64,000 nucleotides of DNA, taken from positions 192,001 through 256,000 of the forward strand of contig CAVPHD010000005.1 in NCBI GenBank assembly GCA_963704165.1, given 5' to 3'. The notes beneath the pieces were generated by a model, which had not been told where the DNA came from, ran no database searches, and saw only the letters and a program-made list of their open reading frames with translations. This DNA comes from an uncultured delta proteobacterium (lineage in GTDB: Bacteria > Myxococcota_A > UBA9160 > SZUA-336). A program made the translations under genes and the position numbers. Positions 51,200-63,880 of the stretch are shown here, in pieces (position 1 is the first letter of the stretch; each line of letters starts with the position of its first letter).

Positions 51200-51240
51200 G
51201 TGGATTCCTTTCTCGCGGCCGGAGAAGTTCATACCCACGT

Positions 51241-51386
51241 GGAAGGCCGGTCTTCTGGCTCCCGGATCACTCTCACGCCGCGCCTTCCCAGGATCTCGCG
51301 ATCCCAGTGGCTTGCTCATGCGGCGCTCGTCCCCGGATACAGCGACGGGCTCGCGCCGGATTCCCACCGGCTTCCCGACACCTTCC
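51241..51386 (-). ncRNA. Cobalamin riboswitch (leader of the PEP-CTERM gene)
   Basis: Minus strand: GGAAGGUG..GGGAAGCCGGUGGGAAUCCGGC..CCCGUCGCUGU..GCCACUGGG..GGGAAGGC..AGCCAGAAGACCGGCCUUCC (B12 box; P1 GGAAGG/CCUUCC). Confidence 0.9.
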
Positions 51387-51481
51387 ACGACTCTTGTCGG
51401 GCGAGTACTACGCCGTCGTCGACGGCGGGTCAAGCGTGTCGCGGTTGACACGCGAGCGCGGCGGGTGATAACGATTCGCCC

Positions 51482-51640
51482 ACTCGGTGTCCGCGATGCG
51501 GACCAATGAGGGAAGGCCGTGAGAATCGGCCGCGGTCCCGCCACTGTGATGGGGAAGTCAGACCGAACGAAGCCACTGGGGAATGCCCTGGGAAGGCTCG
51601 GATCCGACGCTCGACCCCTGAGCCAGGAGACCTGCCGAGT
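51482..51640 (+). ncRNA. Cobalamin riboswitch (leader of btuB)
   Basis: ACUCGGUG..AUGAGGGAAGGCCGUGAGAAUCGGCCGCGGUCCCGCCACUGUGA..GCCACUGGG..GGGAAGGC..AGCCAGGAGACCUGCCGAGU. Confidence 0.95.
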
Positions 51641-51682
51641 TTTCGGGACGATCGTCCCGCTCTCCGCGGAGGGAGTCACTCG

Positions 51683-56584: not shown

Positions 56585-58945
56585 CTACGCCGCCGCCGGG
56601 TCTTCGGGTACGAACCGGAAGAAGCCGGCGCACTCGAGCACGGCCGTTTCGGCCACCTCTTGCTCGCACATCGAGCCGAGTTCGCGGATCCCGTCCGCCG
56701 CGCGGGCGTCGAGCTTCAGCTCCTCCGGCTTGGCGGGGCGGGCCCTCGGAAGCAGCTCGATGATCTTTCTGGCCCATTCGGGGCGATGCTCGCCCTTGGT
56801 GTCGAAGACGACTGGCTGCACGGACGCGCCGTCCTTGAAGATGCAGATCACGCCCGCGCCGCGGTGATCGGAAGACGGCACGGTGAACATCGCGGTACGG
56901 CCGCGCGTGCCGTCCTCGAGCTCGAGCAGCAGGCCCTCGACGAGCGGGTGGCCACTCGCGAAGAAATCGAACTCGTCCTTCTGCAGCGCCTCGACACGCT
57001 CGAAGGTGCCGAGCCAGCGGCTCTCGTCGGGCACACCCGGGATCGACTCGACGGTGAGCGAGGTGCCGAGCTCGAGGTAGTAGAGCGCCGTGCCTCCCTT
57101 GTCGACGATCTTCAGGCCGAGGTCGTTCGCGGCGCCGAGCGTGTAACGCCGCGTCAGGGACTCGAGCTCGGGGGGCACGAGTGCGAGCAGCTTCTCGGCC
57201 TGTGACTCGTCGTAGGCGTCCTGGTAGATCACGCGCGGGATGTCGGCGATCGTTCGCGCGCGCGCGGCGTCGATCGACGCGCAGAGCGCGTCCGCGTCGA
57301 GATCGCTCCCCTCTCGCTCCGACCGTTCGAGCGCTTCGCGCACGCCCGAGAGCGCGAGATCGAGGCCCGCCGACGGTCGGCCGAACAGATCGAGCCGCTC
57401 GTAGAGTCCGGCCGTATCCGGCTGCGATTTCTCGCAACGGAAGTAGACGATCTCGACGTCCTTCGTGCGGCCGATCCGATCGAGGCGGCCGATGCGCTGC
57501 TCGAGCGTGACCGGATCCAACGGGAGATCGAAGTGCACCATCCGGTCGCAGAACTGGAAATTGCGTCCCTCGGTCGCCGCCTCGGTGCAGAGAAGTACGG
57601 GCAGATTCGTCTCGCGAAAGCGCGCGACCTCGAGGTCGCGCTGTGCGGGAGTGAGCGCCTCGTGAAACGTCGCCATGTGCGTGTGCGTCGTCGTCTCGAG
57701 GTGCTTGCGCAGCTTCTCGAGTCGCTCGAGGTCGTGCACGAAGACGAGCGCCTTCTCCTTCCGCTTGTGCCAGCCGCGGACGTTCTTCGCGAGCCACTCC
57801 GCGCGCGGATCCTTCTTCAAGTCCTTCGTCGTCGGGCCGAGATCGATCCGGATCGGTTTCCTCGGCGGGAGTCCGCCGAGATCGCTGCGGCGCACGGCGC
57901 TCGTGCACGGAAAGACCGCCCGACCTTCGGACACCGATGCGTCGAACGCATTGAACTCGCTGAACCGATCCGGGTGAAGGAGCTGCAAGAGGTGGAAGAA
58001 GCCGCGCCGATCCGCCTGCAGCGGCGTTGCCGAGAGCAGGATCGCGTGCTTCGACTCTCGGATGATCGGCGCCACCGCGGCATCGACGTCCTCGAGCGCG
58101 AGGCGATGGGCTTCGTCGACGACGACGAGGTCGAGATCGGCGTTCCGCGCCATCCGCGCCAGAGCCGGATCGGTGGCGAGATCCTCCATCGAGATCACCC
58201 CGAAGGGGTGCACGTCGAAGGGATTGTTTCCTTCACCGTAGTCGCGTTCGACGCTCTCGATGCGCGCCTCGTCGAGCAGCACGAAGACCTGATGGAATTT
58301 TCGGTAGAGCTCGCCCAGCCACTGCACCGTCAGCGTCGAAGGTGCGATCACCAGCGCGCGCTTCGCGCGTCCGGTGCGAACCAGAGCCGAGAGCACGAGA
58401 CAGGCCATGATCGTCTTGCCGAGCCCGACCTCGTCCGCGAGCAACCAGCGGACGGAGTCCATCCGAACCGCCGCGAGTGCCGTGTGGAGCTGGTGCGGAA
58501 AGAGGGCGATGCGTCCGCCGAGGAAGCTGCCGAGTCCTCCGGCTTCGCGGATCGTTCGCAGCGAGAACCCATCCACGCGATTTCGGAACGATCCGAGGCG
58601 ATCGAGCTTGAACAGCGCGAGTCGCTCGATCGGGCCCGGACTGCCCTCGACGGGCCACAGGTCGGCATCCTCGACGCGCCGTCCGTCCGCGAGCAGGTAC
58701 GCGTCACCGTCCCAACGGTCGATGCGCACTTCGCGTTCGGCCGTGAGCTCGATCGCGATCGACCCCGGCGCCATGATCAGCGGCGTCAGGCCCGCGCCCT
58801 GCGCCGCGAGCGTGACCTCGCGTTCGACGGCCGGGAAGTACACCACGAGATACCGGCCGTCGACACGACGAACGAGACCCACCCCAAGCTCGGGATTGAA
58901 GGGGTGGACGAGCTTGCTGCCTTCCCGCCAGGCTGGGGTCGCCAT
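56585..58945 (-). CDS. rapA: RapA/HepA-like SNF2 family ATPase
   Basis: NPELGVG, PHQL, LLADEVGLGKT, DEAH, LSATP, LLCTE...EGRNFQF, EQRIGRLDRIG, HPLV. Confidence 0.8.
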   Translation of the reverse strand: MATPAWREGSKLVHPFNPELGVGLVRRVDGRYLVVYFPAVEREVTLAAQGAGLTPLIMAPGSIAIELTAEREVRIDRWDGDAYLLADGRRVEDADLWPVEGSPGPIERLALFKLDRLGSFRNRVDGFSLRTIREAGGLGSFLGGRIALFPHQLHTALAAVRMDSVRWLLADEVGLGKTIMACLVLSALVRTGRAKRALVIAPSTLTVQWLGELYRKFHQVFVLLDEARIESVERDYGEGNNPFDVHPFGVISMEDLATDPALARMARNADLDLVVVDEAHRLALEDVDAAVAPIIRESKHAILLSATPLQADRRGFFHLLQLLHPDRFSEFNAFDASVSEGRAVFPCTSAVRRSDLGGLPPRKPIRIDLGPTTKDLKKDPRAEWLAKNVRGWHKRKEKALVFVHDLERLEKLRKHLETTTHTHMATFHEALTPAQRDLEVARFRETNLPVLLCTEAATEGRNFQFCDRMVHFDLPLDPVTLEQRIGRLDRIGRTKDVEIVYFRCEKSQPDTAGLYERLDLFGRPSAGLDLALSGVREALERSEREGSDLDADALCASIDAARARTIADIPRVIYQDAYDESQAEKLLALVPPELESLTRRYTLGAANDLGLKIVDKGGTALYYLELGTSLTVESIPGVPDESRWLGTFERVEALQKDEFDFFASGHPLVEGLLLELEDGTRGRTAMFTVPSSDHRGAGVICIFKDGASVQPVVFDTKGEHRPEWARKIIELLPRARPAKPEELKLDARAADGIRELGSMCEQEVAETAVLECAGFFRFVPEDPAAA

Positions 58946-59187: not shown

Positions 59188-59862
59188 ATGGCCGCCCCCC
59201 AGCTACAGCCCCAGGCGCTCGAATGGGTCCGCCCACCCCGCCAGGCGCGCAGCCATCTGACGCTCGGTCGGATTCTCGATGCCGCGGAGTCGCTGCTCCG
59301 AGAGAAGTGCTGGGAGGACGCCTCGGTGGCGGAGATCGCCCGCTGCGCCGGATCGTCCGTGGGAGCGTTCTACTCGCGATTCCGGGACAAGGATGCGCTG
59401 CTCACGGCGCTCCACGAGCGCTTCGTCGAGGAGGCCATCGCGACGGCCGAGCACGCGATGAGCGAGCAGCGCTGGGCGGGCTCGTCGATCTGCGAGATCG
59501 TCCGCGAGCTCGTGGCGTTTCAGGTTCGCATCCAGGATCAGAACGCGGGGCTCGGGCGGGCGATCGTTCGACGCGCCTCGGTGAACCCGGATTACCAAGC
59601 GCGAAGTCTGCGGCTGGCCAGACACATCGAAGAGCTCTTCGCTCGCCTCGTCGTCGCGCGTCGTCACGAGATCCTGCACCCGGTCCCGGTCGTCGCGGCC
59701 GCATTCGCGAGCCGTCTGATCTCGGGCGTGATGCTGCACCGGCTGGTCTTTCCCCTGACGGCCAGCATCGGCAGCCCCGGCGCCTCGCTCGTCGAAGAGC
59801 TGACACACGCTGCGCTTGCCTACCTCGGTGTCTTCCCCGAGGACGCGATCGACGCCTACTGA
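59188..59862 (+). CDS. TetR/AcrR family regulator
   Basis: RQARS..T..RILDAA, SVAEIARCAGSSVGAFYSRFRDKDALL. Confidence 0.9.
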   Translation: MAAPQLQPQALEWVRPPRQARSHLTLGRILDAAESLLREKCWEDASVAEIARCAGSSVGAFYSRFRDKDALLTALHERFVEEAIATAEHAMSEQRWAGSSICEIVRELVAFQVRIQDQNAGLGRAIVRRASVNPDYQARSLRLARHIEELFARLVVARRHEILHPVPVVAAAFASRLISGVMLHRLVFPLTASIGSPGASLVEELTHAALAYLGVFPEDAIDAY

Positions 59863-59869
59863 GCCGACG

Positions 59870-60309
59870 ATGCGTGCGTCCTTGTGGGTCGCCTGCGTCG
59901 CGCTCGTGTTCGCCTGCGGGCGCGAGGAGCGGGTGTCGGTCCCCGAGGCCGCCCCGGTCGCGAGCGCGCCCGTGGACCCGCTCGGCCGCCTCGATCCGGC
60001 CCCGTACCGCCCGGAGATCGAGGCGGCGGAGAACTTCTCTACGCCGGGGAGGGACTCTCGGCCGACGGCTGGAAGGCGCTGTCGAAGGCACTGCTCGAGC
60101 TGCACAACGAGATCGTCTTTCGCGACGAGTCCGCGAACGCCCGAGACACGAGCGCGAAGCTCTTCTTCCTCTCCGCCCGCGCGGAGGCCACGAACAGCCG
60201 GGACGACGGCGATGCCGAGCTCGCCGAGCTACGCGAGCTCTGGAAGCAGCTCAGCGCGGAGGGATTCGCGCCAGCGGATTGGATGCGCGCAAAGGCGGCC
60301 GCCCCCTAG
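59870..60309 (+). CDS. Hypothetical lipoprotein, frameshift near 60035
   Basis: MRASLWVACVALVFAC lipobox; continues in another frame as LLYAGEGLSADGWKAL... Confidence 0.55.
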
Positions 60310-60342
60310 CCTCGACAGCGACGCGGACCTGCAGTCCGATTC

Positions 60343-60957
60343 TCAGCGCGCGAGCTCGCCGAGTCGCTTCTGGATCCAACGCCGATACAGCTCGGCGGGA
60401 TGTGCGCCGGTGATCGCGGTATCCGTGCCGGCCATCTGCACGGCCGGAACTCCGCCCACGCCGAGCTCGACGGCCTGGTTGTGCTCCTCGCTCACCTGCT
60501 GGAGCAACGCGGGATCCGCCGCGCGCGCGAACTCCCGCTCCGGCAGGCCCGACTCGAGCCAGATCGCACGCAGCGTCGCCTCGTTCGAGATGTCGCGGTT
60601 GCGCGCGAAGTAGGCGTGAAGGAGGGCTCCGTGAACGCGCTCGAAGGATTCGCGGCCGAGCGAAGCCGCAGCCTTCGCGACGAGGTGCGGCGGAAGGCTG
60701 TGAGACGGCGGCCCCTCGTCGCTCTGCCAGACCTGGAATACCGCTTCCGGCTCCTCCTCCGACGCGCGGCGCCACGATTCGGTGTAGCGACGGAACTTCT
60801 CGAGGCTGCGGCCCGGCTCGGGATGCGGGCGGAGCAGAAAGCTCTTCCACCGCAGCTCGATCGCGTCGCCGAACTCGCTCTCGATCTCTCGCAGCCGGAC
60901 CGCCGCGACGTTGCACCATGGTCAGAGGTAGTCGGACCAGACGTTCAGAACGACCAT
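60343..60957 (-). CDS. DsbA/FrnE-like thioredoxin-fold protein with in-frame TGA at the catalytic position (selenoprotein candidate, UPWC)
   Basis: Hand translation: MVVLNVWSDYL(TGA)PWCNVAAVRL...WKSFLLRP...LLHAYF..NRDIS...GVGGVPAV..ITGAHP; 204 codons, otherwise open. Confidence 0.85.
60889..60908 (-). promoter_or_regulatory. Putative bacterial SECIS hairpin
   Basis: UCGCGGC-GGUCCG-GCUGCGA 7-bp stem; G-starting apical loop begins 20 nt after the UGA (60922-60924). Confidence 0.6.
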
Positions 60958-60987
60958 GCTCGCGAGCCTAGCACGTGCCCGGCGGGT

Positions 60988-62052
60988 TCATTCCTTCGGC
61001 AACAGGGCTTCGAAGCGCGCCTTCTCGGTGGCCTTCAGGTAGGCGTCGTGCGGGGTGACGCGCTTGCTCTGCACGAGCTCGAAGAGCGCGTCGTCCATCA
61101 GCTGCATGCCGTCCTGTTTGCCCTGCTGGATGAACGAGCCGAGCATCGAGACGTTCGCCTCGCGGATGATGTTCGGCAGCGCCTTCGTCTTCAGCATGAT
61201 CTCGTTCGCGGGGACGCGATCCTTGCCGTCGGCGGCGGGCAGCAGTAGCTGCGAGACGACGGCGGCCAGGGAGTCGGCGAGCGAGAGGCGCGCTTGCGCC
61301 TGCTCGTCGGCGGGAAACGTGTCGATGATGCGGTCGATCGTCTTGGGGGCGCTGTTCGTGTGCAGCGTTCCGAAGACGAGCAGGCCCATTTCGGCTGCGG
61401 TCAACGCCAGTGAGATCGTCTCGTAGTCGCGCATCTCGCCGACGAGGACCACGTCGGCGTCCTGGCGGATCGCGGCGCGAAGACCCGGGCCGAAGCCCTT
61501 CGTGTGCGAGCCGATCTCGCGATGCGAGAAGATGCTCTTCTGGTTCTGGTGCACGAACTCGATCGGCTCCTCGAGCGTGAGGATGTGTCTCGAGCGGGTG
61601 CGGTTGATTCGATCGATGATGGCTGCCAGCGTCGTCGACTTCCCCGAGCCCGTCGGTCCGGTCACGACGACCAGGCCCTTGCGGAGCTCGGCGAGCGACT
61701 CGATCGCCTTCGGCAGCTTAAGATCCTCGAGCGGGACGATCTTCTCGGGGATCATTCGGAGAACGGCCCCCGCGCCGCGCTCCTGCACGAAGAAGTTCGC
61801 GCGAAAGCGCGCCACGCTCTCGAGCCCATAGGCGAAGTCGAGGTCGTGGCATTCCGTGTAGCTGGCCCACTGCGCTTCGGTCGTGATCTCGCGCATCAGC
61901 TTGCGCAGGCCCGCGTCGTCGAGTGGCGTCGCCCCTGCGACCGGACGCAGCTCGCCGTTCACGCGCACGCGAGGATCGATCCCCGCGGCCAGATGCAGGT
62001 CGGACCCGCCGTGCTGCTTCAAGTACCGAAGAAGGTCGTCGATCTGCGCCAA
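60988..62052 (-). CDS. pilT: Type IV pilus retraction ATPase PilT family
   Basis: SDLHL, RFRANFF, GPTGSGKSTTLAA, EEPIEF, VLVGEMRD, GTLHT, GMQLMD. Confidence 0.92.
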   Translation of the reverse strand: MAQIDDLLRYLKQHGGSDLHLAAGIDPRVRVNGELRPVAGATPLDDAGLRKLMREITTEAQWASYTECHDLDFAYGLESVARFRANFFVQERGAGAVLRMIPEKIVPLEDLKLPKAIESLAELRKGLVVVTGPTGSGKSTTLAAIIDRINRTRSRHILTLEEPIEFVHQNQKSIFSHREIGSHTKGFGPGLRAAIRQDADVVLVGEMRDYETISLALTAAEMGLLVFGTLHTNSAPKTIDRIIDTFPADEQAQARLSLADSLAAVVSQLLLPAADGKDRVPANEIMLKTKALPNIIREANVSMLGSFIQQGKQDGMQLMDDALFELVQSKRVTPHDAYLKATEKARFEALLPKE

Positions 62053-62068: not shown

Positions 62069-63565
62069 CTACGTGCTCGGGATCAGTTTCGGATCGTCGG
62101 CGTGCAGAAGGGCGTCTTCGCGCGTCACGTCTCCCGACTTCACGAGCTGCATCAGCGACGTGTCGAGCAGGTTCATTCCCTGAGCGCTGCCCGTCTGCAT
62201 CATCGATCGGATCTGGATCGTTTCGTTCTTCCGGATCAGATTTCCGACGGCGCGGTTCATGGTCAGAACCTCGACCGCAGGGGTCATGCCCTTTCCATTG
62301 GCGCGCGGCAGCAGGCGCTGCGAGACGACCGCGCGCAGCGACTCCGAGAGCATCGCGCGGGCCTGTTCCTGTTGGTCGGGCGGGAACGATCCGATCATCC
62401 GATTCACGGTGCGCAGCGCGTTGTCGGTGTGCAGCGTCGCGAGCACGAGGTGCCCGGTCTCCGCGGCGGTCATGGCGAGCGAGATCGTCTCGCGGTCACG
62501 CAACTCCCCGATCACGATCACGTCGGGATCTTCGCGGAGTGCAGCTCGAAGCGCGCGCGCGAAGGACTCGGTGTGCCGCTTCACGTGGCGCTGATTCACG
62601 ATGCAGCGCTTCGAGGGGTGGAGGTACTCGATCGGGTCCTCGACCGTCAGGATGTGCTCGGCGCGCTCCTCGTTGATCAGATTCACGAGCGCGGCCATCG
62701 TCGAGGACTTCCCGCACGCCGAAGGACCGGTGATCAGCACCATGCCTTGGTGGAAGTTCACGAACTTCGCGAACGCCGACGGCAGCCGCAGATCCGCCAA
62801 CGTCGGCGGTTGGAGGGAGATGCGCCGCAGGGTCGCATCGAGCCCGCGGAGCTGGCGATAGACGTTCAAGCGGAAACGCGCGAGACCCTTGACGGTGTAG
62901 CTGAGGTCGATCTCGCCGTCGGACTCGAGTACCGCGCGCTCGTCCGCCGACAGAATCGGAAGGATCAGTCGCTCCGCATCGGCCTGCGTGACCTTCGTGT
63001 CGGGCACCTCACACAACGCGCCTCGCACTCGCACGTGCATCGTCGCGCCGCTGTGCAGGTGAACGTCGCTCGCGCCCCGGCCGGCGGCTTCGATCAACAG
63101 CGTGTCGAGACCGCGATCGAGAGCAATCGCGCCCATCGCGCTCGTCGTCGGGTTCGGGCGCGCGGGAATCGGGCTCACCTCGCGTGCCGTCGCCGGGGCG
63201 GGGACGGCCTTCCGCGCATGCTCGCGGGCGGCCTGACCGTCCGTTTCCGTCCCGATCTCGACGGCGGGGCGCGCGACCGGCGGGGTCTGCGCAGCGACTC
63301 GAGGCTTCACCGCCGATTCGCCCGCGGCGGCCTTCTTCTGCTCGGCTCGCTCCAGGACGGCCTTCTGCAGATCGAGCGCCCGCTGGAGCTGCGTCGGGGA
63401 GAGAAATCCGAGCTCGACGAGCACTTCGCCCAACCGTTTCTCGACTCCACTGCGGCCCTGCTCGCGTGTCGCCTGCGCGAGCTGATCGACCGTGATCAGC
63501 TTCGCCGACAGCGCCACGCGGCCGAGCAGCTGGTCGGACGCGTCGGTGGTCGGGGAGTTGGGCAT
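62069..63565 (-). CDS. pilT: PilT-family ATPase with N-terminal MshEN-like domain
   Basis: N-terminal RLGEVLVELGFLSPTQLQRALDLQ; Pro/Ala linker; ASDVHL, GPSACGKSST, EDPIEY, ALREDPD, ATLHT, AVGNLIRK. Confidence 0.9.
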   Translation of the reverse strand: MPNSPTTDASDQLLGRVALSAKLITVDQLAQATREQGRSGVEKRLGEVLVELGFLSPTQLQRALDLQKAVLERAEQKKAAAGESAVKPRVAAQTPPVARPAVEIGTETDGQAAREHARKAVPAPATAREVSPIPARPNPTTSAMGAIALDRGLDTLLIEAAGRGASDVHLHSGATMHVRVRGALCEVPDTKVTQADAERLILPILSADERAVLESDGEIDLSYTVKGLARFRLNVYRQLRGLDATLRRISLQPPTLADLRLPSAFAKFVNFHQGMVLITGPSACGKSSTMAALVNLINEERAEHILTVEDPIEYLHPSKRCIVNQRHVKRHTESFARALRAALREDPDVIVIGELRDRETISLAMTAAETGHLVLATLHTDNALRTVNRMIGSFPPDQQEQARAMLSESLRAVVSQRLLPRANGKGMTPAVEVLTMNRAVGNLIRKNETIQIRSMMQTGSAQGMNLLDTSLMQLVKSGDVTREDALLHADDPKLIPST

Positions 63566-63880
63566 GGGCGGCTGAGGTATCGGCAGCCGTTCGGTGCGTT
63601 GTGAGGGACGGGGGGCCTGCGATTGGATGTGGCGAACACCCCACGATCCGACTCCAGGGTCGGGGCGAATGTGGCGAAAACCCTGCAGCGTGCAGCAGAT
63701 CGGCAAGCCAGCGCATTTAGATCAGATATTTCAACTAGTTAGACGAGATCGGCGACACCGGGGAAGGCGTTTCCGGAGCGCGGGGATCGACACGAAGAGC
63801 CGCTGGCGCGTCACGCGACGCTGTAGTTTCCCACTCTCATGCGGTAGGCTGGTGAAATCGCCTCGGAGGGACCCCCCGTA

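Follow-up and report, generated by a model that had tools for sequence, protein, structure and literature searches.

Reading frame of the predicted selenoprotein gene

The window analysed in this study is a stretch of 64,000 nucleotides from the genome of an uncultured delta proteobacterium. Its minus strand carries a frame of 204 sense codons, counted in the window translation with one internal TGA included, which starts with ATG at position 60957 and is terminated by the TGA at 60345-60343. The sole internal stop is the TGA of codon 12 (60924-60922), which lies in the context S-D-Y-L-stop-P-W-C. The next in-frame start is found only at codon 151, and the frame is for that reason missing from the ordinary list of ORFs. 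The first-pass annotation had described this frame as absent from the ORF track and as interrupted only at the first Cys of a D..CPWC motif. Both statements were borne out, the second by the translation and by the alignment with the best PDB sequence matches, Deinococcus FrnE (drFrnE) and Streptomyces SCO1869, in which the TGA column corresponds to the first Cys of CPWC.

60343..60957, minus strand: DsbA/FrnE-fold gene (predicted selenoprotein), 204 aa, based on translation, PF01323, PDB sequence matches and AlphaFold model
60922..60924, minus strand: UGA codon 12, where selenocysteine is predicted to replace the attacking, N-terminal Cys of D-x-x-C-P-W-C, based on the orthologue column
60913..60924, minus strand: U-P-W-C redox motif, U12 and C15, based on translation, alignment and model

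The 192 codons behind the internal TGA are coding-like in composition, with a hexamer score of 0.63 per codon and a GC3 of 0.86. Two overlapping ORFs, 60251-60919 (minus strand) and 60400-61248 (plus strand), were rejected as genes due to their non-coding composition (hexamer scores -0.83 and -0.09). The dN/dS values against all three same-genus TGA orthologues compared are 0.18-0.26, and none of the 11 TGA-containing frames shows a second stop over 190-197 codons. Residues 4-192 match the Pfam family PF01323 (DSBA) with 79.6 bits (cut-off 25.6, E 3e-22), and no NCBIfam model scores above its cut-off for the 204-aa protein. In our judgement the gene is intact and has been conserved; that its UGA is decoded as selenocysteine (Sec) is very likely, indeed close to certain. 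If the read-through is ignored, the protein is either invisible or stripped of its active site; this missed gene is now corrected.

Distribution of Cys and TGA among the orthologues

A search of 41 genomes yielded 30 orthologous loci and a scan of a genome collection another 25, from which L084 and L085, both of them weak and only partial, and eight duplicates were dropped, so that 45 distinct orthologues were left. Their hosts are recorded mostly as Myxococcota or Deltaproteobacteria and some as Binatia. At the column of codon 12 these orthologues contain either TGA (11) or a Cys codon (34, of which 16 are TGT and 18 TGC) and no other codon. The same TGA is thus present in ten other, independently assembled genomes. 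The match in one further genome of the family contains a single TGA as well, and selA is present there.

Within the genus, which is represented by 12 genomes, selA, selC and selD were found in all four TGA genomes and in none of the seven Cys genomes; the twelfth genome has the Sec machinery, and the orthologue was not found in it. Five of the seven Cys genomes without the machinery are 90-96% complete and two are 74% complete. The same three genes, selA, selC and selD, are encoded by the three TGA genomes from outside the genus that were tested, which brings the count to seven out of seven TGA genomes among the 30 genomes with an orthologue. Another 16 genomes have the Sec machinery and yet a Cys at the codon-12 column. 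The seven Cys genomes of the genus form one clade (support 99/97) which is sister to the TGA clade, and the correlation between machinery and codon within the genus therefore amounts to about one evolutionary event. The whole tree requires at least three changes between Sec and Cys. The Cys clade of the genus sits together with the TGA clade inside a less well supported group (91/85), and the remaining sequences of that group carry TGA, which suggests that Sec was lost in the Cys clade; the tree is midpoint-rooted and does not by itself establish the direction.

An alternative would be that the gene is an ordinary Cys gene, its TGA being due to a nonsense mutation or to faulty sequencing. The assembly is indeed error-prone: the serine hydroxymethyltransferase gene (L125, C3:116239-116682) contains a spurious TGA at a non-Cys position together with a broken frame, which is probably an assembly error, and full-length Cys proteins of 73-82% identity are present in metagenomes. 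Due to this error rate the TGA in this assembly alone proves nothing and the case rests on the relatives. One wetland metagenome run shared 5% of words, and its contigs stem from relatives that are less than 90% identical; two of these contigs cover codon 12, with no difference listed there. A shared nonsense allele is moreover incompatible with purifying selection over 190 codons. The conservation of the TGA in ten other genomes refutes this explanation, to which we leave only a trace of probability. The view that the gene is recoded and not broken, which had been put forward together with the advice to look for orthologues with Cys or TGA at this column, is supported by the Cys/TGA pairing, the purifying selection and the co-occurrence with the Sec machinery.

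As a possible footprint of a former TGA we considered the codon TGT, which is used by all seven same-genus Cys orthologues. It was rejected as evidence, because TGT is common for Cys before Pro in this genome (125 of 302 cases, 41%) and because the seven sequences represent one clade.

Selenocysteine machinery and other predicted selenoproteins

The genome (3.87 Mb in 12 contigs, 68% G+C, 84% complete) encodes selA (509 bits), selB (282 bits) and selD (334 bits), all above the curated cut-offs, as well as a tRNA-Sec (selC) which scores 72.9 bits, also above cut-off. All four genes that had been named as those to look for are thus present, and selD itself carries an in-frame TGA. The tRNA-Sec has the anticodon UCA and is the only tRNA with that anticodon found in the genome. 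The same anticodon was seen in 30 of 30 tRNA-Sec loci checked across genomes, and no tRNA-Sec match was obtained in the TGT genomes, so that the idea of Sec being encoded by a Cys codon in these genomes was rejected. A variant genetic code or a suppressor that reads UGA as Trp or Cys has a practically negligible probability. We found no evidence in its favour. In this genome TGA terminates 1484 or more long frames with coding-like composition, the gene described here among them, and the only tRNA found with a UCA anticodon is the tRNA-Sec.

In a genome-wide scan for in-frame TGA codons 152 candidates were obtained by coding score, and 19 regions picked by eye were scanned. Of these, 13 match known selenoprotein types (loci L120, L122-L124, L126-L134), which is a hand-picked lower bound: SelD, four peroxiredoxin/redoxin-like proteins, one TlpA-like protein with WAxxUGC, two AhpD-related proteins with CFYUT, three PrdB/GrdB-like proteins, one UGSC protein and one ArsC-like protein. 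In the other six regions the TGA was judged to be either a genuine stop or an error, and they were rejected. Twelve of the 13 genes possess a hairpin of -7.5 kcal/mol or better in the window of the bacterial SECIS (bSECIS) model. Judged from these genes, the organism appears to have a fairly large selenoproteome, with at least 14 predicted selenoproteins counting the one described here.

The weak point of the machinery is selB. In comparison to two other genomes of the genus (G007, G010) the gene contains one extra base (L002:2898-2951, contig C1), which puts the last approximately 140 residues in another frame. It is the C-terminal part of SelB that binds the SECIS. If this frameshift was real, the lineage would have used Sec and the strain would have lost it, and the gene would be untranslatable past codon 11. 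SelB is however full length (629-632 aa) in four of five relatives; in the fifth, a 3-contig assembly (L119, G012:C2), selB also leaves the frame before the C-terminal part. Frame breaks were found in 8 of 71 orthologous genes tested, so that the assembly is prone to indels, and one of the broken genes lies just upstream of selB and is presumably the essential gene for seryl-tRNA synthetase. Because other genes are broken in the same way and selB is whole in relatives, the frameshift is probably an assembly error. Since selA, selD, the tRNA-Sec and 13 other TGA genes are retained as well, we give the loss of Sec in this strain only a slim chance. The earlier statement that the organism uses Sec is supported by these retained genes and is qualified with regard to selB, which scores above cut-off but is frameshifted in the assembly.

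The predicted SECIS hairpin

Downstream of the UGA a hairpin with the sequence UCGCGGC[GGUCCG]GCUGCGA can be folded, the loop of which starts 20 nt after the UGA and the free energy of which is -11.6 kcal/mol.

60889..60908, minus strand: predicted bacterial SECIS with a 7-bp stem and the 6-nt loop GGUCCG (60901-60896), based on folding and conservation

According to a 2026 review, the bSECIS model consists of a loop of 3-9 nt with a G in the first two places and a stem of 4-16 bp, at a distance of 16-37 nt from the UGA and with at most -7.5 kcal/mol (PMC13188914). In our own implementation of this model, which is not the program bSECISearch, the hairpin agrees with every one of these properties. 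The G-starting loop at 20 nt and the fit to the bacterial model, both claimed before, can thus be confirmed, but alone the hairpin does not go beyond chance. The same test is passed by 216 of 1484 ordinary coding frames ended by TGA at -7.5 kcal/mol and by 57 of 1484 at -11.6 kcal/mol, which corresponds to a chance rate of 4-15%, and the region folds no better than its shuffles (z +0.5 to +1.9). The hairpin alone is therefore weak evidence, and it becomes persuasive through its conservation only.

In seven TGA orthologues of the family 93.9% of the stem cells are paired in the same register, against at most 51% for controls with slid partners, whereas nine Cys sister sequences show 50.8% pairing and are no better than the slid controls. 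The hairpin is kept in the TGA orthologues and has decayed in the Cys sister clade. Part of the stem pairing follows from amino-acid conservation. In the stems of the TGA forms two base pairs have been substituted, one on both sides (U-A to A-U) and the other on a single side (G-U to A-U); this covariation is thin, since 15 of 500 shuffles score as high and the sequences are related. The strict hairpin test is passed by 5 of the 11 TGA orthologues, with the four most distant ones failing it, and by 3 of the 34 Cys orthologues. No Rfam match was obtained at the hairpin, which has no bearing either way.

Genomic neighbourhood and predicted promoter

60988..62052, minus strand: PilT/PilU-family ATPase, upstream neighbour (context), based on TIGR01420 (425 bits, above cut-off) and synteny
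60965..60973, minus strand: extended -10 element (predicted), TG-n-TAGGCT, at a distance of 7 nt from the ATG, based on conservation and spacing

The stop of pilT ends at 60988 on the same strand, which leaves a gap of 30 nt to the ATG. This distance had been noted in the first-pass annotation and is correct; the position itself is probably incidental. The gene might be thought to encode a redox partner of the adjacent type IV pilus retraction ATPases that is co-transcribed with pilT, and besides the short gap it speaks for that idea that pilT lies upstream in all 11 loci of the genus as well as in two other members of the family. In the remaining 32 of the 45 loci, however, pilT is absent within the flanks examined (1.5-3 kb), and the genomes of the Cys clade have an EthD gene, in some cases accompanied by a second gene, between pilT and the orthologue. 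The gene seems moreover to possess a promoter of its own. The arrangement TAGGCT-N7-ATG is conserved in all four same-genus TGA orthologues, and genome-wide the spacing between TAnnnT and ATG peaks at 6-9 nt (167, 114, 96 and 106 cases, in comparison to 16-69 at other spacings). The position of the box suggests a leaderless transcript which may belong to this gene alone, and the enrichment of TAnnnT at 6-9 nt before ATG suggests many leaderless transcripts in this organism. A scan for two-hexamer sigma-70 promoters found no promoter at the gene, and no terminator was found there. Because of the predicted leaderless promoter and because pilT is upstream in only 13 of 45 loci, nearly all from one genus, we judge the adjacency to pilT as probably incidental and a function as partner of the pilus ATPases as very improbable.

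A survey of the neighbours, in which 65 of 148 predicted ORFs across 26 loci were scanned, revealed a flavin reductase (PF01613) adjacent to the orthologue in nine loci, an EthD domain in five and a luciferase-like monooxygenase in two. Dehydrogenases or monooxygenases also recur, and these neighbours hint at a catabolic setting. In the Cys clade and several other family members (L063:2601-2987; L064, L065, L083) the EthD-domain gene is the immediate upstream neighbour, its stop adjoining the start codon of the orthologue, and it is not directly upstream in the four same-genus TGA genomes.

Some further observations concern the surroundings. The first of two tandem PilT-family ATPases (62069-63706, minus strand) has at its N-terminus a c-di-GMP-binding domain related to MshE (NF053729, 43.9 bits, cut-off 38). 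The convergent lipoprotein-like gene at 59870-60309 (plus strand) seems to be divided between two frames, with ORFs at 59816-60613 and at 59884-60309, and the frame scanned has no Pfam or NCBIfam match. A RapA-like SNF2 helicase is encoded at 56585-58945 (minus strand), with PF00176, PF00271 and RapA_C; its score for the RapA model of NCBIfam does not reach the cut-off. At 51228-51400 (minus strand) and 51468-51653 (plus strand) a divergent pair of cobalamin riboswitches was identified (RF00174; 99 and 124 bits). The ORFs that follow them we take, from reading their translations, to encode a PEP-CTERM-type surface protein-like and a TonB-dependent receptor-like protein. Four near-identical units 138 bp apart are found at contig C4:403351-403765.

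Active site, fold and predicted location

60445..60453, minus strand: G-V-P loop (G169-V170-P171), in which P171 is predicted to be the cis-proline of the thioredoxin fold, based on alignment

Apart from C15 the protein contains no Cys. P13, W14 and C15 are invariant in 20 of 20 aligned orthologue rows, and so are V170 and P171. The GVP loop, rightly described as intact before, aligns with the GVP of drFrnE and SCO1869, its cis geometry being a prediction from sequence. Outside the redox motif the invariant residues of the subfamily in the 20-row alignment include LLRP, KFxxYTxxW and PPSHSxP.

The AlphaFold model, which was built on the same 20-row alignment, has a mean pLDDT of 94.7 and places the redox motif at the start of a helix formed by residues 13-32. 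The closest folds are 2in3 (Z 23.5) and drFrnE (Z 23.0, rmsd 2.1 over 196-197 residues), followed by YjbH (Z 22.9), 3kzq (22.2), SCO1869 (21.6) and DsbM (21.3); kappa GST comes next at Z 19.9 and HCCA isomerase at Z 19.3. drFrnE and 2in3/3kzq, which stand for FrnE (cd03024) and FrnE-like (cd03025) proteins, are both among the top matches within 1-1.5 Z. We assign the protein to the FrnE type on account of its DsbA-like thioredoxin fold and of a CP(W/F)C-type motif near the N-terminus, in which Sec is predicted to replace the first Cys. Among the 120 closest homologues CP(W/F)C is present in 111, eight are N-truncated calls and one has CSWC. A C-terminal CxxxxC is present neither in any of the 120 nor in the 204-aa protein itself.

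The hydropathy scan found no hydrophobic signal stretch, as the best 19-residue value (1.12) belongs to the first beta strand. The redox motif begins already at residue 9, and 114 of the 120 homologues have no long N-terminal extension or are truncated. In agreement with the earlier proposal, the absence of a signal peptide supports a likely cytoplasmic location.

Proposed function

For the synthesis of the protein we propose the established bacterial pathway, in which SelB-GTP-Sec-tRNA would bind the GG-loop hairpin and insert Sec at codon 12. By analogy to thioredoxin-fold chemistry and to drFrnE, the selenolate of U12 at the start of helix 1 would attack a substrate disulfide, and C15 would be the resolving thiol for the mixed bond. 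Since the protein lacks the CxxxxC relay that drFrnE has at its C-terminus, an outside reductant would be needed, and the U12-C15 bond might be re-reduced by glutathione or by thioredoxin/TrxR, both of which are genome-encoded (gshB and trxB are present). The enzyme would reduce cytoplasmic disulfides, as drFrnE does. Given the recoding, UxxC, the lack of a signal peptide and the lack of the C-terminal CxxxxC make a cytoplasmic disulfide reductase the likely function, with odds clearly in its favour. This assignment is to be read with the qualification that identities to characterised proteins are only 20-24% and that kappa GST and HCCA isomerase follow at a short distance in the fold comparison. 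The explanation as a whole, an intact recoded gene giving a 204-aa cytoplasmic thiol-disulfide reductase of FrnE type, we consider as probable.

The selenoprotein could instead act on a small molecule, as a glutathione-dependent reductase, isomerase or transferase in flavin-dependent catabolism, and not on protein disulfides. The fold matches to DsbM with GSH, kappa GST and HCCA isomerase are in line with this, the many invariant residues outside the redox motif resemble a ligand pocket, and the flavin reductase, EthD and luciferase-like monooxygenase genes recur in the neighbourhood. On the other hand, kappa GST and HCCA isomerase have a serine at the position of the redox motif, while nearly all homologues keep the redox residues and the cis-Pro loop, and the neighbours vary by lineage with none of them universal. 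We rate this function as unlikely, though as by far the most serious competitor of a protein disulfide reductase.

Equally doubtful is the wider proposal that Myxococcota and their neighbours possess a FrnE-like subfamily which has gone unstudied and in which Sec would serve a small-molecule, glutathione-linked step of flavin-dependent catabolism and the Sec form would be widely hidden in the databases. Among the best 150 cluster representatives 93 are single-domain proteins, of which 27 begin just after the motif and 29 carry CPWC. At least one of the 27 truncated representatives resembles a Cys-type sequence. These numbers hint that many database entries of the subfamily may be candidate truncated Sec forms. 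The other 57 representatives are long, with 443-1163 aa, and most of them show repeated CPFC motifs; two that were scanned (P0012, P0038) contain three or four tandem DsbA domains.

With respect to the disulfide reductase, one genus offers natural Sec and Cys versions which share about 70% identity and of which the Cys branch has only a decayed hairpin. Such a matched pair makes a direct test of what selenium contributes to an FrnE-type enzyme straightforward. If the small-molecule subfamily was true, the pair would be a case in which the codon, the SECIS and the Sec machinery were lost together.

Comparison with known systems

With the periplasmic DsbA oxidases of the E. coli type the protein shares the thioredoxin fold with helical insertion, the CxxC and the cis-Pro loop. 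It differs from them in the lack of a signal peptide and in its CPWC-type motif, where the E. coli-type DsbA has CPHC, and the periplasmic DsbA entries match the model only with Z of about 15-16 over about 160 aligned residues. DsbM from Pseudomonas aeruginosa (5hfg/5hfi), known to us from the PDB titles as a cytosolic disulfide reductase crystallised with GSH, is similar in fold, size (192 residues aligned) and cytosolic location at an identity of 18%; the protein described here lacks a C-terminal Cys relay, so that it would need an outside reductant.

The similarity to drFrnE (PDB 5cnw/5cp1), a cytoplasmic disulfide reductase, comprises the fold, D-x-x-C-P-W-C, the GVP loop and the absence of a signal peptide. 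The two proteins are however only 24% identical, Sec replaces the first Cys, and the C-terminal CxxxxC tail that regenerates the active site of drFrnE is missing (PMC8945050), as it is in some other FrnE homologues (PMC8945050).

DsbA-like proteins with UxxC had been stated to be known as selenoproteins, and this is correct. A DsbA-like selenoprotein family (COG2761, nine sequences) is described from the Sargasso Sea in 2005 (PMC1088965), a DsbA-like selenoprotein is listed in 2006 for cultured bacteria including Anaeromyxobacter dehalogenans (PMC1794560), and the 2022 and 2026 reviews contain a "DsbA-like protein form 1, PF01323, UxxC" (PMC9312934, PMC13188914). The main text of the BSepDB paper (PMC13326102) does not mention DsbA. 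According to the 2026 review, the functions of such predicted selenoproteins are largely uncharacterised (PMC13188914). Our literature search, which extended to sources other than subscription papers and supplements, found no experimental study of a bacterial FrnE-type selenoprotein and, with a guessed class name, no selenoproteome study of this delta-proteobacterial lineage.

As far as these sources describe it, form 1 agrees with our protein in PF01323, in UxxC with Sec first, in the existence of Cys homologues and in a downstream bSECIS-type hairpin, and it is listed for A. dehalogenans, a relative from the same phylum-level group (PMC1794560). Form 2 is given as "DxxUP" with no second Cys listed (PMC13188914), and the motif found here fits both UxxC and DxxUP, the two forms being compared by description only. 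The gene is a missed annotation and a member of an already known predicted selenoprotein family.
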